DNA of 64,000 nt from Candidatus Omnitrophota bacterium (GCA_026416665.1 JAOAET010000044.1:2491-66490); one strand, 5' to 3'. Shown: positions 9,812-55,862, counted from the first letter of the stretch. Program-made: numbers and translations. Notes: generated by a model not told the origin, from the sequence alone.

Positions 9812-9857
9812 AAATCCACAATTTTGGCCGAAAACCTGATTTATTACAAATTAAGTT

Positions 9858-10301
9858 CTAATTTTGATTCGGCACCTGCTGATTTGCTTTCATTGGATTA
9901 CCTGGTGAAGAAGTAGCAGTCTTGGTTGCATTAATTTCTTGATTTCCTTGCGTTACATTACCAGTCGTAGTGGTTGGAACAGAAGATTGGGGCTTCTCTG
10001 TCCTTTGTGGTTGCACGTCAGTTGCGTTTTGAGTAGTTATAATCTTCTGTGGCTTAACTGAACGCATCAAGGATCTGCTTTCCCGTAGGGACAAAAATGC
10101 AAGATTCAAACAACTTAAAAAGAACAAAACTGCCAACACAGAAGTAAGTTTTGAAAGAAATGTGCTTGTCTTTGTCCCTAACATTGACTCAAGTCCTGAA
10201 AACGCCTCTACAAAACCTCCACCCCTGCCCCGCTGAACTAAGATAATTGCAATAAGGATAATACAAACCAAGACGTGAAAAGTTACTGCTAAAGCCATCA
10301 T
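9858..10301 (-). CDS. secG: Preprotein translocase subunit SecG with an extended T/Q/N-rich C-terminal tail
   Basis: 147-aa ORF with two TM helices and the SecG signature LVQRGRGGGF. It follows tpiA immediately, with a 4-nt overlap. Confidence 0.75.
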   Translation of the reverse strand: MMALAVTFHVLVCIILIAIILVQRGRGGGFVEAFSGLESMLGTKTSTFLSKLTSVLAVLFFLSCLNLAFLSLRESRSLMRSVKPQKIITTQNATDVQPQRTEKPQSSVPTTTTGNVTQGNQEINATKTATSSPGNPMKANQQVPNQN

Positions 10302-12601: not shown

Positions 12602-15600
12602 TTACTGTCTTATATCCCAGTTAACATTGCCGCCCAAATCTTGGGAACGAATGGCAATGATGGTTTTGCCGTCTGCCTGGTGGGAATAGCCAATTTTTAA
12701 ATAAGAAAGGGTTGTTTGCGGAGCACTCAGATACCACATCATTTCAGGAACAATTGGTGCAAGTTCAATAAGCCGACCTGCTGAACCTGACACATTAAAA
12801 CCTGTAGTTATTGTATGCGGTGCAGACGCAGAAGCAGCGGAAAAAGATAATTTCTTTACCCCAGGACCAGCGTTTAAGTAGGCAGTAACCAGACGGTCAA
12901 CAAATGCCACTCCACCTTCATAGGTGTTAGTAATAGTCAAGATATTAAAACTGCTTCCTCCTGACCTTACTGTCTGGGTTTGAGTACTGGAATTAAGAAT
13001 TACCTTGCCTGTACCAGGATCAAACAAACCACCAAGATTAGTCCAGTTCCCTGAGACAGTAAGAGTATAAGAACCAGCACGAAGTATAGCATTTTCTTCA
13101 ATAATCAAATTCCCTGCGATAAAGGTATTACCACTTAACCAATAATTTGCCTGATACCTATTTGAGATGGTTAAATTTGTATAATTGGTTGAGGCAAGAT
13201 AAATATTAATGGTTGCAGTCTGATTAACTAAAGTTCCAGTTATTACGATTTGAATTACCGGCCCGACTTGCGAGCCAGCAAGCACACGAATTTGTTCTAC
13301 TGCACTGACGGTAAAATCGCCTTTACCCAACTGACCATTAGCGTTATTACCGCAATTAAATACTGGTCGTGCCTGACTTAAGGCAACAGTCTGTGCACCA
13401 CCTGCTGCTATAGCCACAATATCGTGAAGATAAGTTTCACTTCCTTGTTCTCCTGCCAAAACTTTGACTGGGGTATATCTATTTATGGTGGTTCCATCAC
13501 CAAGTTGACCCCAAGGTTCATTGTTAGGACCTTGGTTTTGCCCCCAACTATAAACATAACCACCGTCAGCAATTGCTAAACTGTGTGCACCACCTGCTGC
13601 TATATCAGTAACATTTCTTAAATAAGTACCTCCTTGTACTCCTGCCAAGACTCGAACAGCAGTTAAACGCGTAAAAGTAGTCCCGTCCCCTAACTGACCA
13701 TAGTTATTATATCCCCAGCTAAAAACATAACCGTCTGAAGAAAGTGCTAAACTGTGTGAATCGCCTGCAGAGATTCGTGTTATATTATGTAAGTAAGTAC
13801 CTGCTCCTTGTTCACCAGAAAGCACTCTGACCGCTGTTGCACTATTTATAGTTGATCCATTTCCTAACTGTCCGTCTTCATTAAATCCCCAAGCATAAAC
13901 ATAACCATCAGTTGTAAGCGCAAGCATATGCGCACCACCTACAGCAACTGTTGCTATATCGTGTAGATATGTGCCACCTCCTTGTTCACCAGAAAGAACT
14001 TGCACAGGATAATAACTATCTTGGGTTGTTCCATTACCTAACTCTCCTTCACCGTTGTAACCCCAGGTATAAACGAAACCTGTTGAGGATACAGCTGCAC
14101 TATTAAAACCACCGGCTGCTATCTTTGAGATATTACTAAGCACCCCCTCGTTATTTAATCCATGCACCTGAACTGGGGTTGCACTATTTTCCGTTGAGCC
14201 GTTACCTAACTGACCAAACTCATTATATCCCCAAGCAAATACTGTTCCATCTTCTGCCAAGGCGATACTGTGATAACCACCTGCTGCTATGCGAATAATA
14301 TTATGTAAATAGGTTCCTCCTCCCTGCTCACCCGAAAGTACCTGCACAGGTCTTGAGGCATCATCAGTTGTGTTATCCCCTAATTGACCAAAGAAATTGC
14401 ATCCCCAAGCAAAGACATAACCGTCTTGGGTTAACGCAATAGTGTGATCATAACCTGAAGCAATTGCTCGGATATTAACCAGATAACTCTTCCATACCAA
14501 ATTCCAAGTAGTAGCATTTCCTGCCTGCAAGGTGTGATTAAATTTTACTTCTAGTGTTCCATTTACATTTATCGTATTTGTTCCTGTCTTGGTAGTTGTA
14601 GCTACTGTTGAACCATCACCAAAGGTAAGATTAAAAAAGTTCCAGGCATTAGATGAACCGCCAAAGTTACCTGTACCTTGTACAGTAAATGTGCCACCGG
14701 TTACATTGATAATCCCTACGCCAGAGCTGGTGACACTGCCTCCTTTTACGGTGATGTTGTAATCGCTAGCAAGAGTACCTACATCAACCTGTAAGACATT
14801 ATTAATCACTACTGGCCCAGCAAATGTCTTTGTTCCCGTAGCATTAATAATTACCTTATAAAAATCACGACCATTACCCGTTCCACCAGTATCAACGGTT
14901 GCTGAACTACCGCTAAAAATCACTGTACTTGTTCCGCAATTGAAAGTAGCTTTGTTTAACCAATCACCACTTACTGTTAAGGTATTATTTGTCAAAGTAA
15001 GCGCACCAGCTAAAATAGATACACTTCCTTCAAAATTAACTGTACCACTAAAAGTCAAAGTACCTGTGCCTAACTTATCCAAACTTCCTGCTCCACCGCC
15101 ACCAGTATCAGTAAAAGTATTTGAAATAATCGTGTTTCCTGTTCCATCAACAGTTAAACGATATCCACCATTGTTTATGGTTCCAGAAAGACTAAGCTGT
15201 GCCCCTTTTACTTCAATAGTGCTTGTTCCTGTCATAGTAATAGCACCAGCAAAACTACTTGTGCCCGTGCTACAAATAAGCTTACTGTCTGCAGCTAAAA
15301 TAAGCGGCTCAGTGGTAGAATAACTAACATTACGAAAATCAATGGTTGCATTATTTACCGTGGTATTACCAGCATTTGTGCCAAGGGCGTTATTTACCGT
15401 TACTGCTAATGTGCCTCCATTAATTACATTTGCTCCTGTATAAGTATTATTGCCACTTAATACTAAAGTCCCTAAACCTGCCTTAGTAATACCAAAACCA
15501 GTGCCACTAATCACTACGCTAATAGTTAAGTCATCATTTGCACTGCCGTCTTCAACAGTTATAACTCGCGATGCACCCAAAGCAATACTTCCACTACTAG

Positions 15601-18600
15601 AAGTGGTTATTGTAGAACCCACTGCCCCCAGACCATTGACAAACAAATTAATGCTACCTGCACCTGTAGAAAGAAGTGTCAAGGTGCCTGCTCCCAAAAC
15701 AACATCCGCAGCGTTAGTGCTTCCGCTATAGAGATTTAAAGTAGTAATAGTCAAAGCAACATTCCCTAAGGTAAAAGTAGCGTTCGGTGCAACTGTAATT
15801 ACACTGGTGTTGGCAATAGCATTGGCAAGGTTTATGGTTAAGCCACCTTCGTTAATAGTAGTAACTGCTGTGTAACTTTTAACTGCTCCGTAGTAACTGG
15901 CAGCACTTGTTGGAAATTCTACTGTACCTGAACCACTAATAGTTAAACCACCTGAACCAGCAATAGCTGGAGATATATAAAATGAACCTATAGCAAAAAT
16001 AATTCCTTCGGCATAACCAAATTGTAAAATACGAGAAGTGCTTGAAGCAGTGGCTCCAATATTACCTGTAGAAACTCGACCAACTGCACCTGAAGTAACC
16101 GTTAATGTACAGTTTGCACTGTAACTTAAGTCTGCACCGTTAATTAAAATAGAGTTAATCGTTACACTACTTGCGGCATTAGTAGCAGAAGTAATTCTTA
16201 CATTTGTGCCTGCGGTCAAGGTGTTTTGAGTATATTCTGTAGCAAGGTCAAGTAGACGAATTCCATTACTGTTAGGCCCATTATCTGTTATATTTATGTT
16301 ATAAGTGACAAATCCTGTACCTAAACCACTTACAGAATTATCTCCAAAGGCATAAGGAACAATCGGCTTGTTCGTCGCAGAGGTATTTGCACCGACCAAA
16401 TATAAACCTGAGGGATCAACAAAAATAATATTGGTGTTTCCTGCTGCAGGGTTGCTACCTATATTATTACCTCTAAACAACACAGTAGCTCCTGTATCTC
16501 TTGTAATCGCACCAAAAGTAAGAACAGTTGAACCACCTGTTCCTGAAAAGACCGTTACCTTAGAAGCTCCTTGTGCGACTTCCAGCATTCCAATAGTTTC
16601 CGCGGCATTGGTAGCAGATACATTGGTTCCCTTGAACACAAATTCTCCACCTCTTAGAATAATAGAACTACTGTTGCCAATACGGTTGGTGTTGTTGGCA
16701 GCGCTATTGTCAACAATTACACTACCACTAGAATTTATAACAAAAGACACACAATTAAGGGCAGTGCCATTACTTCCGGATAAAGTAAGTGTTCCTCTGT
16801 TAATAGTGGTAGTGCCCAAATAGCTATTAACACCAGTTAAAGTAAGCGAACCGGCGTTTACCGTAAGGTCTGCCACAAAAGAATTGTTACCTCCAAGAAG
16901 AAGCGAGCCATCACCATCTTTTATTAAAGAACCTTCACCAGTAATAATTCCGTTATAAGTAAGGGTAGTTCCTGTATCGGTGTATATGGTTCCTGTTCCT
17001 GATAAAAAAATTCCCCGATTAGCGTTTAAGGTAAAAGAAGAACTTGTTCTTAGTGTTCCAGCAAAAAGATTAAGGTAACTGTCACCTGTACCTGCTCCTA
17101 GTGCTTGGTCTTCAGATATTCTAATAATTGCCTCAGTTATTCTAATACCACCAGTAAAGTTATTTGTAGAGTTGCTTAAGGTGACTAATCCTGCACCTGC
17201 TACTGTTAATCCACCACTTCCTGTTATCTGACTTGAAATATTAAGGTTTCCTAAGGCGTAGATAACCGCAGAACTTGTCCCAAATGCCAGAACTGTAGAG
17301 GCATTTATTCCTGCATTTCCTTCTAGGGCTAAGACATTTCCGCTGGTAATTGTTAAGGTATAGGAAGAATTAGCTATAGCTGCTGAGGAAGTAAGAATAA
17401 GAGAATTGATAGTGATATTGGCAACCGGTGCAACTGCAGAGGTAAGCTTTACATTAGCATTAGGAACAGATAGACTTGTAGCATACTCGTTGCTATAGCC
17501 GCCGCTGTTTAACAGTCGCAAACCAAAAGGATTGTCATCAAAATTATAAGTTACCATATCCGTAGCAGCAGAGGACAAAGAATCGCTACCAAAGGCACCT
17601 TTAATGATACTTACAGTTGGTGTCCCTGCAGCGCCACCTGCGCCACTTAAAACAGGTGCATTAGTAAACATAATGGTAGCCACATTCGCCCCTGAAGCAC
17701 TACCTAAGTTTTTACCACGAAAAACCACTATTGCGCCTTCGGTGCGTGCTAAAGAGGCAAAGGTAATTACTGTTGCTCCTTTTGTAGAATCCCTGACGTT
17801 CACATAGTTAAGCCCAGACTGAATCTGAAGCGGTCCAACGGTTTCAAAAACAGCAGAGGTATTTGAACCAATAAGTGTGAAACTACCTCCATACATCTTA
17901 ATAGTGGCAGTATCGGCAATACGGTTTAAGTTACTGGCTGAACTATTATCAAGAATTAATGTCGCCTCATCATGGATGGTAAAAGAAGTAGAATCAAGTG
18001 CTGAGCCATTTGCTGCACTAAAAACTAAAGTGCCTTGTTTGACAGTTGTTTCACCAGAATAAGTATTTACACCCTGCAATATTAGAGTGCCTTGACCGTG
18101 TTTTTCTAGAGAATTTGCTCCCGCAATAACACCGGCGTAAGTTAAAGTAGTACCTGGCTCTACATAAATAGCACCTGTTTTTGATAGCAAAATTCCTCGG
18201 TTTGCATTTAAAGTAAAATCTGATAGAGTTCTCAGTGAACCACCATTTAAAATAAGGTGACTTGGCGTTGGTGTTACCGGAGCTGTCCCTAAACCGCTAT
18301 CTGCCTTAATCTTTAAGGCCCCTTCATTTATTATGGTTGTTCCGGTGTAAGTGTTGACAGCAGTAAAAAACCAAGTGCCAGAACCATTTTTTACTACACT
18401 GGTTACTCCTGTTCCATTATCAGTAATAACCGGGCTAAACACACCAGAACCTGTTCCCGTAAATATTAAGGTTCTAGATACGTTTGTACCACTTAAATTA
18501 ATGGAAGTTCCTGTGAAAGTAAGAGTTCCTTCTCCTGAAACATCTAGGGTAGTTCCAGAAGTTCCGACAGTAAAAAGTCTATCCGTAGAGGTGGACGGAC

Positions 18601-21600
18601 CAGTATATTTAAATGTTCCTGCATTTAATACAAGGTTAGTTGCAGCGTTAGAAGAGGCACCAATACTACTTGCAACTCCACCATTACGTAATATTGTAGT
18701 AACCATTGTACCCTCATTAACAGTTGTAACACCAGTGTAGGTATTAGCTGCATCCAGTGTCCATATTCCTATCCCATTTTTTGTAATGGAACCCGTAGTA
18801 ATAGCAATTACTCCACTTCTAAAGATTCCTTCTCCTGAACCATCTAGAATCAAGTTGTAAGTAGAACCAGTGACACCTCCAGTAAAAATAATCGGACCAG
18901 TTCCATCTGCGACAATAGTAACCCCTGAACCAGTCAAAGTGATACTACGATCAGTAGTTCCACCTGTTCCGATGTATCTAAGCACAGTTGAAGCAGCCAT
19001 ACTAATTGCAGAGGTGCCAGTTCCTAAAGAACTGGCTGAACCTGTGTTAGCCAAACTGTTTACCACTACCGTGCCTGCGTTAATAGTTACAGCACCAGTA
19101 AAAGTATTTAATCCCGTCAAAGTTAAGGTCCCATTTCCTGCTTTTGTAAGTCCACCTGCTCCACTAATTACTGCAGAAATTGTCAAACCGTCTGTAGAGT
19201 TAGTCAAAGTAAATGTCCTGGTTGCAGCCATAATGAGATTGCCACTAATCAAAGCATTGCTACTGCCACCAGTAGATGTAACATTTCCGTTTAATTGTAA
19301 ACTTCCTTGCCCTGTGGCCACTACTCCACCACCATTTGGACCGCTATTGATAGCCAGAGAAGTAACTGTCAAAGTAGCGCCATTACCACTGCAACGAACA
19401 ATGCCTCCATCATTTACGGTAAGCGCACCAATAGTATCTGAGAAACTGTTCCAGTCAAATACTGCACCGTTATTTACCGTCACATTTCCAGAAGACAATG
19501 TATCTGTTATGCCGTAAAGCAGTTTACCTGCATTTATTGCGGTAAGTCCAGTATAAGTATTTGCTTTGGAAAGTAACAAGGTTCCTGTGCCTTCTTTGGT
19601 AACACCATAACCTGTTCCACTTATTACTACCGCAATGGTTAAATCGTTTTCTGCTAATCCATCGGCAACAGTTACTGTTCTTGAAGCACTAAGGGCTATA
19701 CTACCAGTGCTTGCTGTGTAAATTGTTGAACCTACTGCCCCAGTCCCATTTAAGTTTACAGTTATATTCCCACCAAGGGTTAAAGCATTAATACCCAAAA
19801 CTACCTGAGCACCTGCAGTATTGCCACTATACAGATTTAGGGAAGCAATTGTCAAGGATACATCGCCTTTAGTAAAAGTAGCAGGAGCTGCAACGGTGAT
19901 AACGCTAGAGGTAGCAATACCACTGGCAAGGTTAACAGTTAATCCGCCTTCATTTATCGTAGTCGTTCCAGTGTAGGTCTTGGCAGCAGCATTAGAAGAA
20001 GGAAAAGTAACTGTGCCTCCTCCACTGATAGTAATTCCAGCTGTGCCAGAGATAACTGGAGCAAAATTAAATGACCCAATTGCCCAGATTACGCCTTCAA
20101 CATTACCAAACGCTAGAATACGGGAGGTAGCAGTAGAGCTTGCAATATCACCATTAGAAACTCTGGCAACCGCACCTGAGGAAACAGTTAAAGTACGAGT
20201 ATTGGTATTAAAAGTCAGTGTATTTCCGTCTATGAGCAGCGAGTTGATTGTAGCGTTCGTAGTAAAATTGGTAGCAACAGTAATCCGTACATTAGTGTTC
20301 GTAGTAAAAGCATTCTGGGTGTATTCAGTAGTTAGGTTCAGCGGTCTGATTCCATTGGTATTACCATTAGTGTCCACATTGTGGGTGACAAAACTTATTC
20401 CCGTGCCTGTGGCAGAGGTATCACCAAAAGCATAAGGGATGATGTTAATACTAGTAGTTCCGGCAGCGCCTCCTGCGCCCGTAAGGTTTAAACCTGCGGC
20501 ATTAGTGAAACGGATATTTGTGTTGCCTGCTTGAGGGTTTGCTCCAAGATTGGTTCCGCGAAAAAGCACAGTGGCTCCTGCGCTTCGGGAAGCGCCCGCA
20601 AAAGTGAGAATGGTTTGTCCACCTGTGCCAGAGAAAACCGTTACTTTGGACGCTCCAGAAGGAAGAGTTAACATACCCACTATCTCAGTGGCATTAGTAG
20701 AAGGCGTGTTTGTTCCGCGAAAGATAAGTTCTCCACCACTAAGAGTAAAGGCGTTAGAATCACTTAAACGGTTTGTGTTGTTAGTGCCACTGGTTGAGTT
20801 ATCTAAGTTCAGGATAGCACCTTGATTAACAATAAAAGTTGCACTGGTCATTGTGCCATTGGCACCGCTTAAAGTAAATATTCCCCCGTTTAAGGTAACG
20901 GTAGAAGAATTAGTGTTTACCCCCTGCAAAACAATTTCTCCGCCACCACGCTTCTCTAAAGGATTTGCACCTGCAATTACACCTGCATAAGTAAGCACAG
21001 TTGAACTGGTAACATCGATAATTCCACCACCAGAGGAAAGTGCAATACCACGGTTGGCATTAAGGGTAAAACTTGCAGTAGTTAAAAGTGTTCCTCCACC
21101 AAAAGTAAGATGGCCTGGAGTAGCTGAAGCAGGAGGTTGTCCTAAAGCTGAATCAGCCCAGATACGTAATGTCCCTGAATTAATAGTGGTTGCTCCCTGA
21201 TAGGTGTTTGTTGCACCTAAAACTAAAGTCCCCTGACCTTGCTTAATAAGTCCTCTGCCTGCACTGCCACTTATCACGCCACTTATGGTCAATGTCTCGT
21301 TACTATTAGTTACTGTAACTGTCCTTGTTTCTGATAAAGTAATATTTAAACTTATGGTATTTGTTCCACCACTTATATTAGTGGTAATTCCTCCTGCACC
21401 AAGAGTAATTGGATTTCCTGCCAGAGTATAACCGCTTCCAGTAATAGTAATAGAATTAAAACTTGTGTTTGCAGTCAAATCATTATAGGTATTTAATCTA
21501 GAAACCCCTGAAGGAAAAACAAGGTCATCTCCTGCGCCAGGAGTTGCACCACCTAATCCTGTCCAGTTTCCCGCAACTGACCAAAATTCACTGATTGCAC

Positions 21601-23935
21601 CTGTCCAAGTAGCAGTAGGATCCCAGTTATAACAATTACCCCGATTAGTAGATTCAGTCATCTTTACGATAAGTGAATTAAGATTATAGGAGTCCTCAAC
21701 CCAAGTATAAGTAATCAGCCGAACCCCTTTGGGGTCAATATACCAGTATTTTCCTTTCTCTTGCGAAAGTAACTTTATGTGTTTACCATAGGCACCTTCT
21801 AATTCCAAGATGTTCATAATAGTGGTAACCGAACCAGGCTCAAAAAGAAGTTCTTTAGAAGGGCTGGTACAAGTTAAGTTATAAAAACTATTATTTCCAA
21901 AAATAAAAGATGGTCTTGTAGAATCAAAAAATATAACTGTTGACTTCCCTGCCTCAAAAATTCCACCAGTATTTATCCAGCTACCGGCTATGGAAAGTAG
22001 CTGGTTTGTCGCTTGCAAACAGCCGCTACTAAGCAAAATATCTCCATTTATCGCAAGCGAGCGACCAAGAGTAATTATTCCACGATAACCATCAATTACT
22101 AAACCTGCTATTTGGTCTTTGAAATTAGGGTCAACAAAAGAATCTTTGTGAGAGTTTAAAGTAGAAAGGCCGTTAAAGAAAACTACATCAAATGCACTGG
22201 GAACAGTACCCGTATCCCAGTTTGCAGGATCTGACCAAAAATAAGTTTCTCCTTCTCCGATCCAGGAGATTCTAATATCAACATTAGTGTTATTACCAAC
22301 AGAAGTTGAATGCCTTACAATAAGAGGTGGTCCACGTGCATTAAAACAATCTCCAATCTGTGCATAAGCAATATCTGTATCTGCCAAAGGTAAGATTTTC
22401 CATTGTTTACCCGGCTCAGTAGAGACTAAGGTTACAAGATTAGCATAACAACCTTGAATGGTCAAACTTCCCATTACAGTAACTGTCTTGTCTGCCTCTA
22501 CCGTAATCTTTTTTCCTGGAGCGATCACTTGCAAGTTATAAAAAACATTATCTCCACTGATGATACTGGGAAGTTCAGAAATAAATTCCACTGATGACTG
22601 TTGAGCATTAAAATTACCAAAATTAACCCAGTTACGCGCAATATGATAAATGGAATTAGCAGCGTTTAGAGTAACACCCTGACCAATAATTAAAGAACCA
22701 CCTGCAGTTAAATGCGAACCATAATACTGGGTAAAATATGCAGGTTGTGCAGATTGTTTTAAAATGATATCGCCAGCACTATTAACATTGGCAAGTAAAC
22801 CTTTGCCCGAGCTTTGGATAAGAATGTTACCAAACCCACAAGTAGAAATGGTAGTACCTATTGCCTGCAAAAAAGACCCAATTCCATCAAAATCAGCATC
22901 GGCTAAAAATGATAAATTCCCGTTTACTGTGGTAACATCAGCATAAACTTCCACATTCTTGTTTGCTTTAAGTTCAGTATTACCAAATGTTTTCAATTCT
23001 CTATCAATTTTTATAGTCTGACCCGAAAATACTTCTATATTTCCTCTTCGAGCATCTAAGATTCCTGAGATCTCTACATTACGGTTGGCTTTAATTTTTA
23101 TTTTACCACCTTCTTCTACTAAAGTACTGGCTTTTACGATGCCTTTTTGATTAACTGCCTTTTCAAAAATCTGCTCAGCAACTTGGGCGGTCATATACAC
23201 TTGGTGGGCTTCAATTGTTGCTGTATTTAAAACTGCTTCGTTTAGTGGTTTACCATCAAAACCAAATACCTGATTTATAGTTTCTGCGTTAACCTCAAGT
23301 TGGATAAGACCTTTTGTGTCAAAACTAATAGTAACTTTGTTACCTGAAGCAAGTTGCACCGAACCCGCCTGTGCAAAAATAAAACCGTGGTTTTGAACAG
23401 CACTGCCTACTAAAGCAACATTACTTGCTGTAATTTTGCCCTGATTAAGAATTGCCGAAAAGACATTGCTATTTTCAAGAATGTAATTTGCGTTAAGAAA
23501 ATTATTAGTAGCAATATCTAACGTAGAAGCAACTAAGGTTTCTACATGAACCTGCGAAGTAGGGCTAAAACATATACCTTGGGGGTTTATTAAAAAAAGC
23601 GTTCCATTTGCGCTTAAAATTCCTGCAATTTCAGTAGGACTTTGACCTATTACCCGACTTAAAACTCTTGCGTTTTCTGATGGTTGAATAAAATGTACTG
23701 CTTCATTTGAAGCAATGGAGAAAGAATTGAAATTAATTACACAACCATCATCAGCAAAAATTCTCAAAGTAAAAATATTATTGGTAGTTGCAGGGTCTGG
23801 CCGTTCAAAAGTGGCACTGCCATACTCCACTGACTCACCTTCTGGCAGACAATTACCCGAGTGTGCTGTTAGCACTACTAACAGAATAGTCAAAATATTA
23901 AGTAGAACTAACTTTCGTTTTCTTTTAGGTTTCAT
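12602..23935 (-). CDS. Giant two-partner-secretion exoprotein (TpsA), 3777 aa. It has a signal peptide, a TPS (hemagglutination-activity) secretion domain, beta-helical PATR-rich modules, a 7-bladed RCC1 beta-propeller and a ~215-aa C-terminal domain of unknown function.
   Basis: Single 11,334-nt ORF. Residues ~40-140 match the TPS domain consensus (...[19 protein letters not shown]...[32 protein letters not shown]...VASTLDI). The cognate TpsB gene lies immediately upstream. Confidence 0.85.
   Translation of the reverse strand: [3777 protein letters not shown]
13301..14455 (-). repeat. Seven RCC1-type repeats (aa ~3161-3545) forming a predicted 7-bladed beta-propeller near the TpsA C-terminus
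   Basis: Seven ~55-aa blades, each with AAGG.HSLAL..DG.V..WG.N..GQLG (e.g. [46 protein letters not shown]...WGQLG). Confidence 0.75.
15386..21568 (-). repeat. Three tandem, diverged protein-level modules within tpsA (aa ~790-2850; the middle copy is partial). Each is anchored by ...[10 protein letters not shown]... and holds several PATR units (G.GTL.L.G.NTYTG.T.IN.GTL).
   Basis: TLNANRGI recurs at aa ~957, ~1908 and ~2302 (DNA ~21067, ~18214, ~17032) with collinear flanking similarity. The DNA copies are only ~65-75% identical: ACCCTTAATGCCAACCGTGGT vs ACTTTAAATGCAAACCGAGGA vs ACCTTAAACGCTAATCGGGGA. Confidence 0.6.
23036..23848 (-). other. TPS secretion domain of TpsA (aa ~30-300), FhaB/ShlA/HMW1 Haemagg_act-type
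   Basis: Conserved NPNG-like motif (NPQG) preceded by SANGTLFLI and followed by VASTLDI; hydrophobic signal peptide aa 1-27. Confidence 0.8.
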
Positions 23936-24225
23936 TTTATTTTTAAAATAAAAAATCCAGGCAAAGCCTGGTTTGTTGCATAGTCACTTCGGTAGCCTGC
24001 CTCTGCCCTAAGCCGCACGGCTTTGCGCGAACTACTTAAAAAGTAGCCTTGCCCTTTCGGTTGCTATGCTTGATATTATAATATGATTTTTTCTTTAATT
24101 CAAGTATAACATATATTTATATAGAATACCATCTTATACAAGATAAAATTTTAATTATATTATGTTGGGTCTTTGCGTTTAGCTACAATAGGTTAAGAAA
24201 AGTAACTTAAGTTCTGCAAGGTCTT

Positions 24226-25974
24226 TTATAATTCAAAGTGTAAACTAAAATGGAAGGTAGAAGACCCTTGGCTAGGGCTGGGACGATCACCAACGTGTTC
24301 TGCCCAATCAAGCCGTAAGAAAAAATTGCGGTTAAATTGGAAACGCAAACCCATTCCTGCTGCCGCTAAAAACTTTTGGGACTTTTCTACTTCGTCAGTA
24401 TGCTTTAGTTTTCCCGCACCTATATCACAAAAAATCAGTGGTTGTAACTGGTTACGTAAAGGCATACGTGCACCTTTTAATCGAATGTCATCAGGAATAA
24501 AAGGGAAAAAGAACAACCATTCTAAGTTAAGATATGCTCCTATGTCTGCTAAGTAATCACCTTCGGGATATCCTCTTACTGAATAAACACCCCCTAATTG
24601 AAATTGTTCTGAAGAAGGTAAAGTTCGGCTGGCCCATTGTGCTTTTGAACGCAACCATAAATATGTCTGTGCAGAAGTCTTTTGAACCCTCTGTAACGAC
24701 TGCTCATACTTGAGAAAACTACCTGCCGAAGAGGGCCTACTTGCGCTGGCGTGACCGCGTTCTGAAGCGCCCAAAATATCTTCTAGACTTACTGTCAATC
24801 GTGGTGAAAAACTAGTTTGCCCCCCTGGCCCAAAACGGTCAATCTTTGATAAATCTAGTGAAAAAAACAAAAGGCGCAATTGGTCATTAATAGTAGTTTC
24901 TTTTTGTTCTTTTTTCTTTACTGAGACAATGTCCATACCTACATCAAAATACCCTTCGGTTTCGGCAGTAAGAATGATTTCCTTTGTAATATGCGGTGTG
25001 CCTATTCGTGTGGAAGAAGTAATATCCTGATAACGATACTCCTTGCCAACTTTACTGTCAAACACCGTTAAATCTAAACCCGCTCTTGTTCCATAGGAAT
25101 CAGTAGGAAAAACATAACTTACAAAATAACCTTTGGCATCTTTAGACGACATTACATTGAAAGCGCAAGAATCAAATTTTCCAGTTAGGTTTGTGCTTCG
25201 CGCAAAAAAAGAACGACGATACTTACCACTTAAACGCGTTCCATGATTATCAAAACTTGTTCCTATATGATAAGGAAATTGCTCTTTTACTTTTAAAGTA
25301 ATATCGGTTGTCTGAGGTTGTTGCCCTGAACTTAAAACAGCAGTAACTTCTAAATCAGGATTTTGATTTAACCTTAGTAGATCTTGCTGCAGGGTGAAAA
25401 CATTAAGTAACTGGTTTTCTTTTAGATGGATATATTTTCTAATGAGAGCAGAAGAAAACCATCTGTCTGCCTCAATGGTTATTTTACCTAATTTGCCTTC
25501 AATGACTCTTAATTCTATTCTACCCTCAATAACATCCTGTTCTGGAATATAAACGTCTGTGGTTAAATACCCTTTTTTTCTATACAGGGCCTTTATCTGC
25601 TCAACTATCTCTTCTAATTCACTAAAAGTTACTTCTTTTCCTAAGTATTTTTCATAGTTAGGATAAAAATCTTCCTTTGAAAAAATAGTAGAGCCAGTGA
25701 TGATTACTTCTTTAAGAAGAAAAACTACCCCCTCCTTTTTCAGGACAGGTCTTTCTTCAACCTTAATTGACGGGCTCATCGGTTTTTCTCTCTCAATACG
25801 TTTCTTTTCTTCTTCAATCTCTTTTTTAAAACGGCTTGCCTCTGACCCTGCTTTTGTTGAGACAGGTAAATTTTGCGCAATTACTGGACAAGAAAAAAAA
25901 CTGAAAATAAGAAAGCCGACAATTAATATATTTTTGGTGTAACTATTTCTAAACCAAATAAGTGTTTGAGACAT
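24226..25974 (-). CDS. TpsB outer-membrane transporter of the two-partner secretion system (ShlB/FhaC/HecB family; POTRA domains plus a 16-strand beta-barrel)
   Basis: 582-aa ORF with a signal peptide (FLIFSFFSCPVIAQ), a POTRA-like region (GRIELRVIEGKLGKI) and a beta-barrel ending in an aromatic residue (...FHFSLHFEL). It sits directly upstream of and co-oriented with tpsA. Confidence 0.8.
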   Translation of the reverse strand: MSQTLIWFRNSYTKNILIVGFLIFSFFSCPVIAQNLPVSTKAGSEASRFKKEIEEEKKRIEREKPMSPSIKVEERPVLKKEGVVFLLKEVIITGSTIFSKEDFYPNYEKYLGKEVTFSELEEIVEQIKALYRKKGYLTTDVYIPEQDVIEGRIELRVIEGKLGKITIEADRWFSSALIRKYIHLKENQLLNVFTLQQDLLRLNQNPDLEVTAVLSSGQQPQTTDITLKVKEQFPYHIGTSFDNHGTRLSGKYRRSFFARSTNLTGKFDSCAFNVMSSKDAKGYFVSYVFPTDSYGTRAGLDLTVFDSKVGKEYRYQDITSSTRIGTPHITKEIILTAETEGYFDVGMDIVSVKKKEQKETTINDQLRLLFFSLDLSKIDRFGPGGQTSFSPRLTVSLEDILGASERGHASASRPSSAGSFLKYEQSLQRVQKTSAQTYLWLRSKAQWASRTLPSSEQFQLGGVYSVRGYPEGDYLADIGAYLNLEWLFFFPFIPDDIRLKGARMPLRNQLQPLIFCDIGAGKLKHTDEVEKSQKFLAAAGMGLRFQFNRNFFLRLDWAEHVGDRPSPSQGSSTFHFSLHFEL

Positions 25975-45729: not shown

Positions 45730-46177
45730 CAAAAATGCCCTCCTTTCTTTTAAGGTTTTTGTGTTTCTGTATTTTCTAAAAATCTGCTATTTTAAAAAGA
45801 CGTATAGTTTCTTATTCTCTCACTAAGTTTTACTGTATTGTCTGGGCTGATAAGCCAATGGAAGTCTATAGAGGTTAGTATAAGATTACTTCTTTATCCT
45901 GTGGTAAATGAATTTAGTTTAAAACCAAAGTTGTATTTATTTAAAGCAAAGAATATATCTTAAAAAAGCCTGTTCTTTTAATCTTTCTTTTAATCTGTCT
46001 CAAATAGAGCTTGGGATAGCTGGTAGTTTTTCTTATCACTTAATCTATAGCCACAAAGCTTATAATCTGAGAATTACTGCTGTTCTTCTGTTATCTTTTT
46101 GCTTTACATATTTTTATATGTTGTTTATCAACGGGGTAGAATTGACACTATCTAGTTTTTATGTTACATTTTTAGGT

Positions 46178-47362
46178 ATGGACGAATTGACCAAGATAAA
46201 ACAAGAACTTGAACGCACCCGCTCTGAATTAACCATTCTCTATGAAATTTCTAATGCCATGCGTACAACACTCAAGTTAGATGAGATTCTTTATATTATA
46301 CTTACGGGTGTAACTGCGCATATTGGATTAGGTTTTAACCGAGCAGTTCTATTTTTAGTTAATGAAAAAGAAAACCTTATTGAGGGTAAAATGGCAATTG
46401 GGCCAGAATCGGCTGAAGAGGCAGGGCGCATTTGGCGTTATATTGAGCAGGAAAAATTAGATATGGAAGATATGATTAATGCCTATAAGGTCTCAGGTAA
46501 GGTCAAAGAAAGTGCCTTTAACCGTCAGGTTCAACAAATAAAAATCCCACTTTCTGAGACGAAAGAAAATCTACTTGCCCTTTGCGCCTTAGAAGGAATG
46601 CCTTTACATCTTACTAAAGAGACAATTCAAAATTATGCTCAAGATAAAATCATTCAGTTTCTTCGTTCAGAGGAATTAGTGATAGTTCCGCTTAAGGCAA
46701 AAGACAAGGTCAACGGTATAATTCTGGCAGATAACTTTGTTACCAAAAAACCAATTACTAAAGACGATGTGCGAATGCTTATAATGTTGGCAAACCAAGC
46801 TGGCCTTGCTATAGAAAACTCTCAGCTTTATGAAAAAACACTCATTACTGCTCATCAAGATTCACTAACTTCCCTATGGAATCACGGCTATTTCCAGTAT
46901 CTTTTGAATATGGAGTTAGAACGTTCGCGTGCAACCTTTTCACCATTATCCCTTATCTTACTTGACTTAGATGATTTTAAGGCATACAATGACGCGCTCG
47001 GACATCAAGCAGGAGATATGCTCTTACGTGAGATAGCTCTGCTACTTAAGAATCATTCTAGAAAAATGGACCACGTCTGTCGTTACGGTGGAGAAGAATT
47101 TGCAATTATCCTTCCTTCTACTGATAAACGCGAAGCAGCTCTTATTGCTGAACGGCTAAGAGAAAATATAGAAAAACATCACTTTAACAAGGAACAAATC
47201 CTACCTAACAAAATACTTACCGCCAGCTTAGGGATCGCTTCATTCCCTGATGATAGCTCTACTACTTCTGAACTCATTAGTCACGCGGATGCTGCCCTTT
47301 ATCAAGCAAAACACAAAGGAAAAAATGTGGTGGTTACCTACCATAACAGCGAAATTCACTGA
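46178..47362 (+). CDS. GAF domain-containing diguanylate cyclase (GGDEF); the ORF could instead start at 46118
   Basis: The C-terminal GGDEF domain carries an intact RYGGEEF active site and DxLT...NDxxGH motifs. The N-terminal ~180 aa resemble a GAF domain. This is the only plus-strand gene in the window. Confidence 0.8.
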   Translation: MDELTKIKQELERTRSELTILYEISNAMRTTLKLDEILYIILTGVTAHIGLGFNRAVLFLVNEKENLIEGKMAIGPESAEEAGRIWRYIEQEKLDMEDMINAYKVSGKVKESAFNRQVQQIKIPLSETKENLLALCALEGMPLHLTKETIQNYAQDKIIQFLRSEELVIVPLKAKDKVNGIILADNFVTKKPITKDDVRMLIMLANQAGLAIENSQLYEKTLITAHQDSLTSLWNHGYFQYLLNMELERSRATFSPLSLILLDLDDFKAYNDALGHQAGDMLLREIALLLKNHSRKMDHVCRYGGEEFAIILPSTDKREAALIAERLRENIEKHHFNKEQILPNKILTASLGIASFPDDSSTTSELISHADAALYQAKHKGKNVVVTYHNSEIH

Positions 47363-47420
47363 AATAGACTTTATAAATAATTTTTCTTAACGAAGTCTTT
47401 TTACTTGTTAGAGAATAAGA

Positions 47421-47449
47421 CAGGGCGAGAAGACTCGCCCTGTTTCCTC
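47421..47449. terminator. Bidirectional intrinsic terminator between the convergent GGDEF and smc genes: stem CAGGGCGAG/CTCGCCCTG, loop AAGA, T-rich on both strands
   Basis: 9-bp GC-rich perfect stem at 47421-47442, followed by TTTCCTCC on the plus strand and TCTTATTCTCT on the minus strand. Confidence 0.55.
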
Positions 47450-51020: not shown

Positions 51021-51197
51021 TCAGGCATGTGTCTGTTTCTCTATCCATTCATCGATCTTTTCTTTCTTGAATCTCCATTGACCAACCACTTTAAGCGCAG
51101 GAATTTTATTGTGTTTAAGCCACTCATAAATAGTCCTACGACTTACTTTTAAGTAATTGGCTAAATCCTCTATAGTCATCAATTCGTTCACAAACAT
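51021..51197 (-). CDS. Small helix-turn-helix DNA-binding protein (excisionase/AlpA-like, MerR-superfamily winged HTH). The track's TTG start at 51230 overlaps the -10 element, so the real start is probably the ATG at 51197 or 51179.
   Basis: The sequence ...MTIEDLANYLKVSRRTIYEWLKHNKIPALKVVGQWRFKKEKIDEWIEKQ matches the Xis/AlpA HTH_17 pattern. A perfect promoter lies immediately upstream. Confidence 0.55.
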   Translation of the reverse strand: MFVNELMTIEDLANYLKVSRRTIYEWLKHNKIPALKVVGQWRFKKEKIDEWIEKQTHA

Positions 51198-51229
51198 AGT
51201 AAAAAGATAATTTTTCTGATGATGGCTCA

Positions 51230-51258
51230 ATTATAAATATCTTTTTTTTCGCTGTCAA
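51230..51258 (-). promoter_or_regulatory. Perfect-consensus sigma70 promoter: -35 TTGACA (51253-51258), 17-nt spacer (GCGAAAAAAAAGATATT), -10 TATAAT (51230-51235), driving the small HTH gene and possibly smc
   Basis: Read directly from the minus strand. It lies within a 198-bp AT-rich intergenic region. Confidence 0.6.
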
Positions 51259-51674: not shown

Positions 51675-51736
51675 TTTGGCTTAACAAACTTTTAATTTTA
51701 TAATTAAAGAAAAAGCAGGGATAAAGAAAAGAATAA

Positions 51737-52939
51737 TTATTTCTTAAGTACCTGGCGAAATTTTTTAGTTAGTAAAGGAACAATCTCAAATAAGTCACCC
51801 ACTATACCGTAAGTAGCCACTTTAAAAATAGGTGCGTCGGGATCCTTATTTATTGCTACAATTATTTTTGAAGACTGCATTCCTACTAAGTGTTGAATTT
51901 GCCCTGAAATACCACAGGCAATATAGATTTTAGGGGCAACGGTTCTACCCGTTTGACCTACTTGATGAGAATAAGAAATCCAACCCGCATCTACCGCAGC
52001 ACGTGAAGCGCCCACCGCCCCACCTAAAACTTCTGCTAACTCATGTAAGAGCTTAAAGTTCTCTGGTTTCTGTAAACCCCTTCCTCCTGATACAATTATA
52101 TCTGCTTCTGCAAGATTAACTAAATTCTCTACCTCTTCTACTACGTCTAACAAGGTAGTTTGTGAAGAAAGGTCCTCTAAAGGAAAATTTTCCTTAATTA
52201 TCTTACCTTTTCTTCTTTTGTCCAGTTCAGGCTGAGGAAATACTTTATGCCGAACAGTAGCCATTTGTGGCCGATAATTTGGAGAAATAATTGTGGCCAT
52301 GATATTACCACCAAAGGCAGGACGTGTCTGTAAAAGAATCTTTTTTTCAGGATCAATATCTAAACCTGTACAATCAGCAGTTAAACCACAATCCACTTTA
52401 ACTGCTACCCGTGAAACTAAAGATCTGCCAATAAAAGTAGCACCTGCCAGAACAATCTCAGGTTTATATTTATGAATTAATTTTATCAGCACATTTGCAT
52501 ATGGCTGGTCAAGAAAATTAGCTAATTGTGGTGCCTCTACCAAATAAACTGTATCTGCACCTGTACAAATAAGCGACTGTGCCTCTATTTCTACATTATG
52601 TCCAATAAGTACTGCTCCTACATAAGTGTTTAGTTTCTCTGCTAACTGGCGTGCCTTGCCCAATAATTCATAAACTACTGGCTGAACTTTGCCCTTTTTT
52701 TGTTCAGCAAAGACCCAAACCCCCTTATATTGACTGAAGTCTTTGGCTTGGGGCTGTTGAAGCGGTCTTTCTAAAAGAATAGCTTTAAATTTACAAACTG
52801 GAACACAAGCACCACAGAGATTGCATTTGCCCAAATCAATTACTGCCTTTTTATTAATAATGGAGATGGCTCCAAAAGGACATGCCTTCACACACAAAGT
52901 GCAACCTGTGCATTTTTCATTAATAATTTGTATAGACAT
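51737..52939 (-). CDS. etfA: Electron transfer flavoprotein alpha subunit with an N-terminal 2x[4Fe-4S] ferredoxin domain (CarE/FixB-like)
   Basis: 400-aa ORF. The N-terminus has two CxxCxxCxxxCP motifs (CTGCTLCVKACP; CNLCGACVPVC), followed by the Etf alpha FAD-binding domain (SGQIQHLVGM...IVAINKD). Confidence 0.85.
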   Translation of the reverse strand: MSIQIINEKCTGCTLCVKACPFGAISIINKKAVIDLGKCNLCGACVPVCKFKAILLERPLQQPQAKDFSQYKGVWVFAEQKKGKVQPVVYELLGKARQLAEKLNTYVGAVLIGHNVEIEAQSLICTGADTVYLVEAPQLANFLDQPYANVLIKLIHKYKPEIVLAGATFIGRSLVSRVAVKVDCGLTADCTGLDIDPEKKILLQTRPAFGGNIMATIISPNYRPQMATVRHKVFPQPELDKRRKGKIIKENFPLEDLSSQTTLLDVVEEVENLVNLAEADIIVSGGRGLQKPENFKLLHELAEVLGGAVGASRAAVDAGWISYSHQVGQTGRTVAPKIYIACGISGQIQHLVGMQSSKIIVAINKDPDAPIFKVATYGIVGDLFEIVPLLTKKFRQVLKK

Positions 52940-52957
52940 AAAATTTTCCTTACCTAG

Positions 52958-53752
52958 TTAGACAATATCCGATTTAAGCAACTCTACCAATTTATCAACT
53001 ACCTCTGCTGGCTCACCGACAAGTTTCTGTCCTCCACTTCGCTGAGGTGGATGAAATATCTTTACTACAGTTGTGCGTGAACCTGCTAATCCTACCTGTT
53101 GTGCGTCAACACCAATATCTTTAGCTGTCCAGGTAATTATCTTTGCGCTTTTTGCACGCATCATTCCTTTTAAAGAAGGAAGGCGCGGTTCGTTGATTTC
53201 TTTTACTACAGTAAAAAGACAAGGAAGCGGGGTCTCTAAAATATCAAAACCCTCCTCGGTCATTCTCTCCACACGTGCCTTTTGGTTTTTTATCTCTTCA
53301 ATCTTTTTAACATAAGTTACCTGAGGCAGGTCTAAAAAAGCAGCAATCCCAGGTCCGACCTGAGCAGTGTCACCATCAGAAGCCTGCTTTCCGCAAAGAA
53401 TGATATCAAAAGAACCTTTTTCTTTAGCAATCTTCTGGATAGCATGAGACAGAGTATTTGCAGTGGCCCAGGTATCTCCACCAGCAAATGCCTTATCCGA
53501 AATAAGAATTGCTTCATCCGCACCCATAGAAATTGCTTCACGTAATGCTGACTCTGCTTGGGGCGGACCCATAGTAATTACTGTAACTGTTCCGCCAAAA
53601 CGCTCTTTTAAACGAACTGCCTCCTCAATGGCATACATATCAAAGGGATTGATAATAGATTTTACACCATCACGAATTAAGGTATTTGTTTCCGGATTAA
53701 TCCGCACATCCGTTGTTTCAGGAACCTGTTTTATACAAACTATAATATTCAT
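52958..53752 (-). CDS. etfB: Electron transfer flavoprotein beta subunit
   Basis: 264-aa ORF MNIIVCIKQVPET... with typical EtfB motifs (DILCGKQASDGDTAQVGP). Confidence 0.85.
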   Translation of the reverse strand: MNIIVCIKQVPETTDVRINPETNTLIRDGVKSIINPFDMYAIEEAVRLKERFGGTVTVITMGPPQAESALREAISMGADEAILISDKAFAGGDTWATANTLSHAIQKIAKEKGSFDIILCGKQASDGDTAQVGPGIAAFLDLPQVTYVKKIEEIKNQKARVERMTEEGFDILETPLPCLFTVVKEINEPRLPSLKGMMRAKSAKIITWTAKDIGVDAQQVGLAGSRTTVVKIFHPPQRSGGQKLVGEPAEVVDKLVELLKSDIV

Positions 53753-53755
53753 TTT

Positions 53756-54112
53756 TTACTGTTGTTTATAAAAAAGATATTTTTGTATACGTTGAAAGGT
53801 CTCGTCGTTTATACCAATAAACTCTAATCCCAATTCATAGCGTTTAATCTCTGAACCTGAAATACTCTCCAGTGGTTTTATCCAAACCACTTTGCCAATA
53901 GCAGTTATTTCTTCGTCTACATCAGGTAAATGAAGCTTAAGATTAAGTAACTCTCCTAATGAATATGGCTCAGTTGAGATAATACAAACTCCACCCTGGC
54001 TAATATTCTTTGTGTTAAGAATTTTCTCAGGTGCACCTTCTTGACGTTTGCTTACTTTAGCCTCAACCAAGATGTTAAACCGCGCAAAACGCCTTCTCTC
54101 TTGCTCAGACAT
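53756..54112 (-). CDS. PilZ domain protein (predicted c-di-GMP receptor)
   Basis: 118-aa ORF with RRRFAR (RxxxR) and NISQGG (D/NxSxxG) motifs at canonical spacing. It is embedded between acd and etfB. Confidence 0.7.
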   Translation of the reverse strand: MSEQERRRFARFNILVEAKVSKRQEGAPEKILNTKNISQGGVCIISTEPYSLGELLNLKLHLPDVDEEITAIGKVVWIKPLESISGSEIKRYELGLEFIGINDETFQRIQKYLFYKQQ

Positions 54113-54125
54113 AACTGCCGCCTTT

Positions 54126-55283
54126 CTATTTTACTAACTCCTTAATCATACTAAGACCAATAATGTTTCTCTGTATCTGATTGGTCCCTTCATAAATCTG
54201 TGTAATTTTGGCATCACGTAGGTATTTTTCAATAGGATAATCTTTCATATAACCATATCCACCGTGAATTTGTAAGGCATTATCACAGACACGAAAGGCT
54301 ACATCTGAAGCAAAAAGCTTAGCCATTGCAGAGGCACTACCTATGTCTTTTTCTCCAGCATCAATAGCACGGGCAACTGCATAAACAAGTGCCCTGGCTG
54401 CTTCTATCTCAGTGGCCATATCCGCCAACATCCACTGTATTCCTTGGAAACTTGAAATAGGTTTCCCAAATTGCTGGCGTTGCCGAGCATACCTTATAGC
54501 CAATTCCAAAGCCCCTTGAGCAATACCCAATGCCTGTGCAGCTACACCAGGCCGCGACATATCAAAAGTCTTCATTGTGATAATAAAACCCATTCCTTCC
54601 TTTCCAAGTAAGTTTTCTGCAGGAACTTTGCAGTTATCAAAAATAAGCTCCATCGTAGTAGATGCTCGGATACCCAGCTTATCTTCTTTCTTACCAAAAC
54701 TAAATCCCTTCATTCCTTTTTCTACAATAAAAGCTGAAGCACCTCGTGCACCTTTGGACTTATCCGTCATTGCAATAATAGTATAAATTTCTGCCTCTCC
54801 ACCATTGGTAATAAAATGCTTTGTTCCGTTTAAGACATAATAGTTTCCTTCTTTACGCGCAGTAGTCTTTATAGCACTTGCATCTGAACCTGCCTCTGGT
54901 TCAGTTAAACCGAAAGCAGCAACTTTTTTCCCCTTAGCTAAATCGGGTAGATATTTTTTCTTTTGCGCATCATTGCCATAAAGAATAATCGGAAATGTTC
55001 CTAGAGCAGAGGCAGCATAACAAACTGCAATACCGCCACATGCTCGAGAAAGCTCCTCAGTAGCAAGACACAGATTCATTACACTGGTCCCTAAACCACC
55101 GTATTCTTCCGGGATAAAAAGTCCAAATAAATCTGCCTCAGCAAGCACTTTTATAATCTCCCAAGGGTATTCCTCTGTCTTATCATAATGAGCTGCCACT
55201 GGACGAATTTTTTCTTCAGCTATTTTGTGAGCTAATTCCTTTATCATCTTCTGTTCTTCAGTCAACAAATAATTCATACACAC
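54126..55283 (-). CDS. Short-chain acyl-CoA dehydrogenase (butyryl-CoA dehydrogenase-like)
   Basis: 385-aa ORF with ACAD N/M/C domains and a C-terminal catalytic-Glu context IYEGTNQIQR. An AAGGAG SD sits 5 nt upstream. Confidence 0.85.
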   Translation of the reverse strand: MCMNYLLTEEQKMIKELAHKIAEEKIRPVAAHYDKTEEYPWEIIKVLAEADLFGLFIPEEYGGLGTSVMNLCLATEELSRACGGIAVCYAASALGTFPIILYGNDAQKKKYLPDLAKGKKVAAFGLTEPEAGSDASAIKTTARKEGNYYVLNGTKHFITNGGEAEIYTIIAMTDKSKGARGASAFIVEKGMKGFSFGKKEDKLGIRASTTMELIFDNCKVPAENLLGKEGMGFIITMKTFDMSRPGVAAQALGIAQGALELAIRYARQRQQFGKPISSFQGIQWMLADMATEIEAARALVYAVARAIDAGEKDIGSASAMAKLFASDVAFRVCDNALQIHGGYGYMKDYPIEKYLRDAKITQIYEGTNQIQRNIIGLSMIKELVK

Positions 55284-55385
55284 TCCTTGTTTTTTAAAAG
55301 TAAGTTAAGTAAGTCTTTTCTTATTTTAAATGTAACGAAAATTTTTTCAGATAAAATAAAAAATGTGAAAGTCTATTATACAGAA

Positions 55386-55862
55386 TTATTTCTGTTTTGC
55401 AATATTTTTTATCAGGGCAATTTCTTTACAATTAGGAAATTTTGGACAGTTAATACAATCAGCCCAAACTTTGTGCGGTAATAAAGAGTGTTTAATTTTA
55501 CGAAACCCAAATCTGATAAAAAAATTCGGCACATAAGTCAACACAAATACCTTTTTTGCTCCTAATTCTTTGGCCTCTTTTAAACACTCTTCAATAAGCT
55601 GACTACCAATTCCCTGGTGTTGATAGCTTTTCTCTACTGCTAGGGATTTTATTTCAATAAGGTCTTGCCAAGCAACATGAACAGCCGCACAACCGATGAT
55701 CTCTTTCTCAGCTAAACAAACCCAGAAATCACGGACATTTTCATATAGTTCGTTTAGAGAACGCGCAATCATTAAACCCTGTTTGGCGTAATTATTAATT
55801 AAATTTTGAATTTTGGGAACATCTGAAATAACAGCTTTACGGATTTTATAATCCTTCTTCAT
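55386..55862 (-). CDS. GNAT family N-acetyltransferase (short ArgA-like), with a C-terminal CxxC...C cluster
   Basis: 158-aa ORF with the acetyl-CoA-binding motif HQGIGSQLIEE. It overlaps glgC by 17 nt. Confidence 0.7.
   Translation of the reverse strand: MKKDYKIRKAVISDVPKIQNLINNYAKQGLMIARSLNELYENVRDFWVCLAEKEIIGCAAVHVAWQDLIEIKSLAVEKSYQHQGIGSQLIEECLKEAKELGAKKVFVLTYVPNFFIRFGFRKIKHSLLPHKVWADCINCPKFPNCKEIALIKNIAKQK

Follow-up and report, generated by a model that had tools for sequence, protein, structure and literature searches.

It is well established that PilZ proteins consisting of a single domain can serve in trans as adaptors of enzymes, as in the pairs MapZ-CheR1, HapZ-SagS, and N5MapZ-HemK (PMC11250160). 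According to the literature, the targets of known adaptors are motility, secretion, polysaccharide synthesis, methyltransferases, and transcription factors. Bifurcating complexes of the Etf/Bcd type, in which an electron-transferring flavoprotein (Etf) works with a butyryl-CoA dehydrogenase (Bcd), are treated in the searchable literature as unregulated at the protein level. Here we describe a PilZ gene that lies between the genes for a predicted complex of this kind in a stretch of 64,000 nt from a metagenome-assembled genome (MAG) of a Candidatus Omnitrophota bacterium (GCA_026416665.1, JAOAET010000044.1:2491-66490; hereafter, the window). The protein itself is a further member of the PilZ superfamily; what is new is the arrangement, with one PilZ subfamily reserved for an Etf operon of the bifurcating type.

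Full-text literature searches returned nothing relevant on PilZ or cyclic di-GMP (c-di-GMP) together with Etf, Bcd, or electron bifurcation. A large survey of the PilZ superfamily does not mention a flavoprotein or dehydrogenase context, and two phylum-wide genomic studies of Omnitrophota mention neither PilZ, nor Etf, nor c-di-GMP. Small pilZ genes located downstream of giant genes were noted in a preprint (10.1101/2023.11.21.568195), which is a different context.

Organization of the acd-pilZ-etfBA genes

All coordinates refer to the whole window, and L-numbers denote the related loci that were fetched for comparison. Open reading frame (ORF) calls place four genes on the minus strand at 51737-55283, in the order acd, pilZ, etfB, and etfA. 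The acd gene (54126-55277, minus strand) encodes a butyryl-CoA-dehydrogenase-like acyl-CoA dehydrogenase, as judged by Pfam and PDB matches. It is followed by pilZ (53756-54112, minus strand), the product of which is a single-domain PilZ protein of 118 aa and, by its Pfam match, structural model, and synteny, a putative c-di-GMP receptor or adaptor; we refer to its relatives as family A. The etfB gene (52958-53752, minus strand) encodes an Etf beta subunit of 264 aa, of the bifurcating type by similarity (Pfam ETF and PDB matches), and etfA (51737-52939, minus strand) encodes an Etf alpha subunit of 400 aa with a CarE-like N-terminal 2x[4Fe-4S] ferredoxin domain (Pfam and PDB). The spacers measure 13 nt (acd-pilZ), 3 nt (pilZ-etfB), and 18 nt (etfB-etfA), and each contains a purine run resembling a Shine-Dalgarno sequence.

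An earlier, sequence-only reading of the window had listed the same four ORFs in the same order with spacers of 3-18 nt, and ORF calls and inspection of the spacers agree with it. Its version of acd, 54126-55283, had the right ORF; the start is more likely the ATG at 55277 than the GTG at 55283 from which the mechanical ORF begins. The ATG is preferred because it gives a protein of 383 aa, as in every homolog, rather than 385 aa, and because AAGGAG lies 5 nt upstream of it. A scan of the window found no terminator-like site at any gene junction within the operon, and between positions 45000 and 58000 there was no Rfam match above the gathering score and no c-di-GMP riboswitch. A promoter-like site found by a consensus scan (TTGCAA-16-TATAAT; 55375-55402, minus strand; 10/12 matches) falls in the 102-nt gap upstream of acd and is a weak candidate for the operon promoter, such sites being no more numerous than in shuffled sequences. 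The four genes form what we take to be one operon and would be transcribed together.

A PilZ subfamily confined to the acd/etfB junction

The first homolog search recovered eight PilZ homologs, and each of those with a readable genomic context was located between acd and etfB. Because EtfB is conserved much better than PilZ, we used EtfB as bait for farther relatives. Among its close relatives (75-84% identity), PilZ was present in five of six contexts; loci L024/L025 join acd straight to etfB. A profile built from 18 family-A sequences then identified at least 120 PilZ clusters at E<1e-35, all of them 112-128 aa long, and the three most divergent of these clusters on long contigs occupied the same slot between acd and etfB. 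Altogether, the context was readable for 16 family-A lineages, some of which are just 24-35% identical to each other, and the gene was in the acd/etfB slot in all 16. Conservation of the acd-pilZ-etfBA order in relatives, the lack of which would have refuted the sequence-only reading, is therefore what we found. In 10 of the 16 lineages, the pilZ stop codon and the etfB start codon share either 1 nt or 4 nt (ATGA); the gap in the window is 3 nt.

When GTDB species genomes were scanned with the PilZ alignment, family members were identified in Omnitrophota only, and remoter PilZ matches (26-34% identity; L012-L018) lie away from etf genes. A broad PilZ hidden Markov model (HMM) detected a single PilZ in the 64-kb window, and in approximately 700 kb of related loci it detected none outside two etf-adjacent slots, the acd/etfB junction and the interval after etfA. 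Chance adjacency of pilZ to these genes is ruled out by the single PilZ in the window, the lack of any in the flanks of the related loci, and the placement of the subfamily in one and the same slot in 16/16 contexts.

Not every operon of this kind contains pilZ. In a sample fished with EtfB (63-78% identity), 54 loci had acd upstream, and these comprised 4 with PilZ, 3 with another gene in the slot, and 47 with a direct junction. The other occupants encode either a 325-aa periplasmic binding protein (ABC_sub_bind) or a 539-aa CAAX protease of the Rce1 type and are found at L029:2950-3927, L034:1448-2425, and L078:2385-4004. In a rough EtfB tree, PilZ-positive loci form one main clade plus scattered tips, a distribution that implies several losses or transfers. 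A separate peculiarity was seen in L019, where a 114-nt spacer between acd and pilZ (L019:4516-4629) contains a GC-rich hairpin, CCCGCAG-GGA-CTGCGGG, which may point to pilZ-etfBA being expressed in an uncoupled or attenuated manner in that lineage.

The PilZ protein

The PilZ ORF matches Pfam model PF07238 over profile positions 1-101 of 102 (E=1.2e-16; 61.4 bits, cut-off 22.5), and the PilZ proteins of L019, L031, L035, L030, and L059 pass the same model. The window protein is identical to MCX7927506.1, encoded on an 81-kb contig of a Candidatus Omnitrophota MAG. The 18 aligned family-A sequences (33-58% identity) do not vary at R7, F9, R11, N36, I37, or G41, and 17 of the 18 retain S38. Translation and alignment place the codons of the RxxxR motif (R7-R-F-A-R11) at 54080-54094 and those of the (D/N)xSxxG motif (N36-I-S38-Q-G-G41) at 53990-54007, both on the minus strand.

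The AlphaFold2 model of the protein (predicted local distance difference test score, pLDDT, 79.9) has six strands, a C-terminal helix (residues 103-115), and a disordered N-terminal arm, the first five residues of which have a pLDDT below 50. Foldseek matched this model to the c-di-GMP-bound PilZ domains of MotI/DgrA, Alg44, MrkH, YcgR, and BcsA with probability 1.00 and template-modeling (TM) scores of 0.65-0.78; MapZ bound to CheR1 (5y4r_D) was also among the matches. Sequence identity to any solved PilZ is 12-28%, and the closest solved chains by sequence are those of the Xanthomonas type IV pilus PilZ (3dsg and 3cnr; E about 2e-4, barrel region only). The ratio of nonsynonymous to synonymous substitution rates (dN/dS) of pilZ is 0.15-0.28, indicating that the gene is maintained under purifying selection, and it evolves several-fold faster than the neighboring genes.

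By sequence and predicted fold, the ORF is a canonical single-domain PilZ of the putative c-di-GMP-binding type. The sequence-only reading had recognized the 118-aa ORF as a PilZ with RxxxR and NxSxGG motifs, and the Pfam match, the placement of the motifs in the alignment, and the predicted fold all bear this out. The protein would bind c-di-GMP through RxxxR and NxSxxG. We also considered a degenerate, non-binding PilZ, which is unlikely given that little or no variation is seen at the motif residues.

The acyl-CoA dehydrogenase and Etf subunits

Acd contains the Pfam domains Acyl-CoA_dh_N, _M, and _1 and the YEGT motif with the catalytic glutamate. Its closest solved relatives are the Bcd proteins of Clostridioides difficile (5OL2_C; 4e-127) and Acidaminococcus fermentans (4L1F; 3e-126), whereas CarC (6FAH_C; 1.7e-97) is the 17th match, behind Bcd, SCAD, and MCAD enzymes. 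It reaches no NCBIfam equivalog cut-off, the AcrC score being 488 against a cut-off of 640. By these comparisons, Acd is nearer to Bcd than to CarC and falls short of assignment as a CarC ortholog.

The Etf subunits are different in this respect. EtfB (Pfam ETF) has CarD (6FAH_B; 7e-74) as its best solved relative, followed by Thermotoga maritima EtfB (7KOE_A), the C. difficile (5OL2_B) and A. fermentans (4KPU_B) proteins, and LctB (7QH2_B). These top five PDB matches are all bifurcating or confurcating Etfs (7e-74 to 1e-64), whereas non-bifurcating ETFs score 1e-36 or weaker, human ETF being at 1e-36. EtfA contains two Fer4 domains, ETF, and ETF_alpha in Pfam, and its residues 1-395 align with CarE (6FAH_A; 3e-131), ferredoxin domain included; matches to bifurcating Etfs range from 3e-131 to 3e-89, and the match to canonical ETF is 8e-50. 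The ferredoxin domain, delimited by translation and the two Fer4 stretches, spans residues 1 to approximately 57 (52769-52939, minus strand) and contains two complete CxxCxxCxxxC motifs, C10/C13/C16/C20 and C39/C42/C45/C49. Both motifs were found in 65 of 66 full-length EtfA sequences of the sampled relatives. Thus, the CarE-like domain with two [4Fe-4S] clusters that the sequence-only reading saw at the EtfA N terminus is there, and its term "CarCDE-like" suits EtfB and EtfA and does not suit the dehydrogenase, which is closer to Bcd.

By sequence similarity, the Etf is of the bifurcating type, with a CarE-like ferredoxin domain, and is paired with a Bcd-like dehydrogenase; the activity itself is predicted. 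Acd proteins are 83-88% identical among the relatives, and the products of the enzyme genes are 80-88% identical in amino acid sequence where SMC is 50-64% identical. Their dN/dS values are 0.02 for acd and 0.03-0.06 for etfB. This extraordinary conservation, together with the low dN/dS, argues for a core role of the enzyme. No genes for crotonase, 3-hydroxyacyl-CoA dehydrogenase (hbd), or thiolase are present in the window, and the acyl-CoA substrate is therefore not readable from the context.

Additional signaling genes at the locus

Other genes for signaling proteins repeatedly occur next to the etf genes in the related loci. L027 has tandem in-operon PilZ copies (3176-3535 and 3636-4004) that are 61% identical, and L112/L113 have an extra family-A-like PilZ 9 nt after etfA (L112:6371-6730). 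A distinct PilZ, which we term family B, is located between etfA and the HTH_17-smc gene pair in L030 (2824-3147 and 3498-3884), L031 (2704-3045), L034 (5026-5391), L035 (6116-6466), and L068 (6130-6468). Family-B proteins are 107-128 aa long, contain RxxxR and DxSxxG, and pass the Pfam model. L068 carries both families, A and B.

In many close relatives, a stand-alone CheY-like receiver (REC) of 122-124 aa (Pfam Response_reg) comes right after etfA (L001:3277-3651, L004:8417-8791, L007:4991-5365, L022:8175-8549, and L024:7044-7412; also L003). In the window, etfA is followed by a gap of a mere 62 nt (51675-51736) before the next ORF, without a REC; with so little space, the REC was either lost here or never present.

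The window also encodes a GAF-GGDEF protein (46118-47362, plus strand), which the sequence-only reading had noted as a cyclase gene 6 kb away. The GGDEF domain is readily identified (E=8e-47); its GGEEF active-site motif is intact, an inhibitory RxxD site precedes this motif by five residues, and from its sequence the protein looks catalytically competent. The gene is 6 kb off and on the opposite strand to the operon, convergent with smc and beyond both the HTH_17 gene and smc, and a link between it and the acd-etf operon is unsupported. The HTH_17 gene (51021-51230, minus strand), of a type encoding 58-69 aa, is itself immediately preceded by a perfect sigma-70 consensus, TTGACA-17-TATAAT (12/12; 51230-51258, minus strand), and the HTH_17-smc pair is kept in nearly all Omnitrophota loci examined.

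Possible roles of PilZ in the operon

Given an association that is exclusive, deep, and repeatedly reinforced, with translational coupling to etfB, a functional link between PilZ and the Acd/Etf complex is the most economical reading. We propose that PilZ serves the complex encoded with it as an adaptor that depends on c-di-GMP, by analogy to MapZ on CheR1 and N5MapZ on HemK. PilZ would be translated together with EtfB and would bind c-di-GMP via its two motifs; either the ligand-bound or the free form would then dock on Acd/Etf as a trans-acting adaptor, and docking would tune the electron flow linked to NADH, acyl-CoA, and ferredoxin to the cellular c-di-GMP level. Both the contact with the complex and the direction of any effect are part of the conjecture. 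Also in favor of an adaptor, the same operon has independently attracted other PilZ genes, namely the L027 duplicate, the L112/L113 copy, and family B. Based on gene order, we consider the proposal plausible, if somewhat short of probable. A stronger version, in which c-di-GMP directly gates flavin-based electron bifurcation and PilZ is a dissociable subunit that locks or releases the complex of the Bcd-like dehydrogenase, EtfB, and ferredoxin-EtfA, seems rather unlikely to us.

Several observations weigh against an adaptor of the enzyme. On the one hand, there are those that concern the gene: PilZ is accessory and dispensable, being absent from the 47 direct junctions among the distant operons as well as from L024/L025, the EtfB of which is still 75% identical, and the acd/etfB junction tolerates insertions, since unrelated genes occupy it in some lineages. 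The serine of the second motif (the S38 position) is replaced by glycine in three lineages, L019, L106, and L112. On the other hand, there are those that concern the contact with the enzyme: no PilZ-Acd/Etf fusion was found among the best 150 matches of a profile search of 1.84 billion representatives, these matches being stand-alone or tandem PilZ proteins only. In a mirror-tree comparison, PilZ distances correlated with those of EtfB, EtfA, and Acd at r=0.27-0.44, compared with 0.66-0.78 for the enzyme subunits among themselves. No residue of Acd, EtfB, or EtfA cleanly splits PilZ-plus from PilZ-minus operons (best frequency difference, 0.68), and it is from gene order alone that control of the enzyme by c-di-GMP would be read.

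Much of this would also be expected of a co-expressed passenger, which is the chief rival explanation: a genuine c-di-GMP receptor with its target elsewhere (for example pili, secretion, or the giant surface proteins that typify Omnitrophota), for which the operon merely provides steady or condition-matched expression. Patchy distribution, weak covariation with the enzyme subunits, the failure to find a docking signature, and a slot open to unrelated genes all fit a passenger, as do the many small pilZ genes that Omnitrophota carry elsewhere, for example downstream of giant genes (10.1101/2023.11.21.568195). However, a passenger would be expected to relocate around the genome over such evolutionary distances, whereas the whole subfamily has stayed in one slot in 16/16 contexts across deep divergence, duplicates and the second PilZ family likewise stay beside the etf genes, and the overlap of the pilZ stop with the etfB start is conserved. 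We regard the passenger as a serious candidate that is, all the same, more to be doubted than believed.

Two other explanations are of lesser weight. PilZ and REC could form a signaling pair similar to HapZ and SagS, relaying c-di-GMP and phosphorylation to an output that may be the adjacent HTH_17-smc genes and not necessarily the enzyme. The REC genes that follow etfA in six of the loci named above (L001, L003, L004, L007, L022, and L024) suggest such a pair, family-B PilZ fills the same interval between etfA and HTH_17 in other lineages, and the single-domain PilZ protein HapZ has a REC domain as its binding partner, according to a citation in PMC11250160. The two are not obligately paired, however, as PilZ lacks a REC companion in L019, L021, L106, and L109 and REC lacks a PilZ companion in L024, and with only 62 nt between etfA and the next ORF the window itself has no REC there; we consider the pair improbable. 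Alternatively, PilZ could be a structural or assembly subunit, or a chaperone, of the Etf complex that senses nothing. There is a precedent in the non-binding Xanthomonas PilZ, which bridges PilB and FimX. That protein lacks both c-di-GMP motifs. It is also the source of the solved chains closest in sequence to the window PilZ (3dsg and 3cnr); the serine-to-glycine replacements would be consistent with loss of sensing, and the etfB overlap suggests coupled production in amounts roughly equal to EtfB. In contrast to the Xanthomonas protein, family A has both motifs, with R7, R11, N36, and G41 invariant, and the model of the window protein is matched best by canonical PilZ domains with ligand bound. 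An essential subunit, moreover, would not be missing from most of the related operons, and this explanation is very improbable in our judgment.

The adaptor proposal matters because a PilZ subfamily confined to this operon provides, with four small and soluble proteins, a concrete and cheaply testable hypothesis that c-di-GMP reaches core redox and energy metabolism. If the stronger version, with direct gating of bifurcation, were true, an electron-bifurcating enzyme would for the first time be seen under the control of a second messenger, and the energy metabolism of these Omnitrophota, which are ultra-small and possibly attached to hosts, would be tied to whether they are attached. The subfamily would also offer a first functional handle on c-di-GMP signaling in this uncultured phylum. 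Should PilZ prove to be a passenger, the locus would nonetheless be a clear case of an operon insertion specific to a lineage.

Other features of the window and related loci

The upstream neighbors of the operon are housekeeping genes (leuCD, leuB, asd, truA, marC, glgC, and a GNAT gene). On the downstream side, the operon is followed by an ORF for an 81-aa membrane protein, the HTH_17 gene, smc, the GAF-GGDEF gene convergent with it, and recA. In the gap where smc and the GGDEF gene converge (47369-47447, minus strand), there is a weak Rfam match to Termite-leu RNA; with 32.8 bits against a gathering score of 51 (E=6e-4), it is probably due to chance. In L024 and L025, the loci without PilZ, smc (7826-10798) contains an intein (Intein_splicing and LAGLIDADG_3), and its product is 1694 aa long.

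Farther away, the window contains an ORF of 3777 aa with PATR and RCC1 repeats beside a POTRA outer-membrane transporter of the ShlB/FhaC type (24226-25974), the two together covering 12602-25974 on the minus strand. The arrangement resembles two-partner secretion, with a giant surface protein as the probable cargo. Another very long gene is represented by an open frame that extends over 1451 aa or more and runs off the window start (1-4353, minus strand).

Comparison with known systems

The only NCBIfam model matched by the window PilZ is TIGR02266, the Myxococcus paralogous PilZ-type domain (E=7e-11). The match is partial and at 42.1 bits is below the cut-off of 68.7 bits, so that the protein is not a member of this family.

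As for the enzyme, CarCDE of Acetobacterium woodii (6FAH) resembles the window operon in that EtfA corresponds to CarE and EtfB to CarD, and the order of dehydrogenase, etfB, and etfA is the same. It differs in that the window dehydrogenase is nearer to butyryl-CoA dehydrogenases, and caffeate-activation genes were not found near the operon. We know of no PilZ or other signaling protein in CarCDE. The bifurcating Bcd/EtfAB systems of C. difficile and A. fermentans (5OL2 and 4L1F/4KPU; PMC5691135) provide the closest solved relatives of Acd, and their Etfs resemble the window EtfB and EtfA far more than non-bifurcating Etfs do. In contrast to these systems, the window EtfA has an extra ferredoxin domain, a PilZ gene separates acd from etfB, and the surroundings are housekeeping genes (glgC, the GNAT gene, smc, recA, and leu genes), with no crotonase, hbd, or thiolase gene adjacent.

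The PilZ protein itself can be compared to adaptors of the MapZ/HapZ type. Like them, it consists of approximately 120 aa with a PilZ domain alone and has both motifs, a disordered N-terminal arm, a barrel of six strands, and a helix at the C terminus. The partners of the known adaptors are chemotaxis, two-component, methyltransferase, or transcription-factor proteins, whereas the Acd/Etf complex is at this point a proposed partner. Unlike any of these adaptors, the window PilZ is embedded in, and its subfamily confined to, an operon for flavin-based electron transfer.

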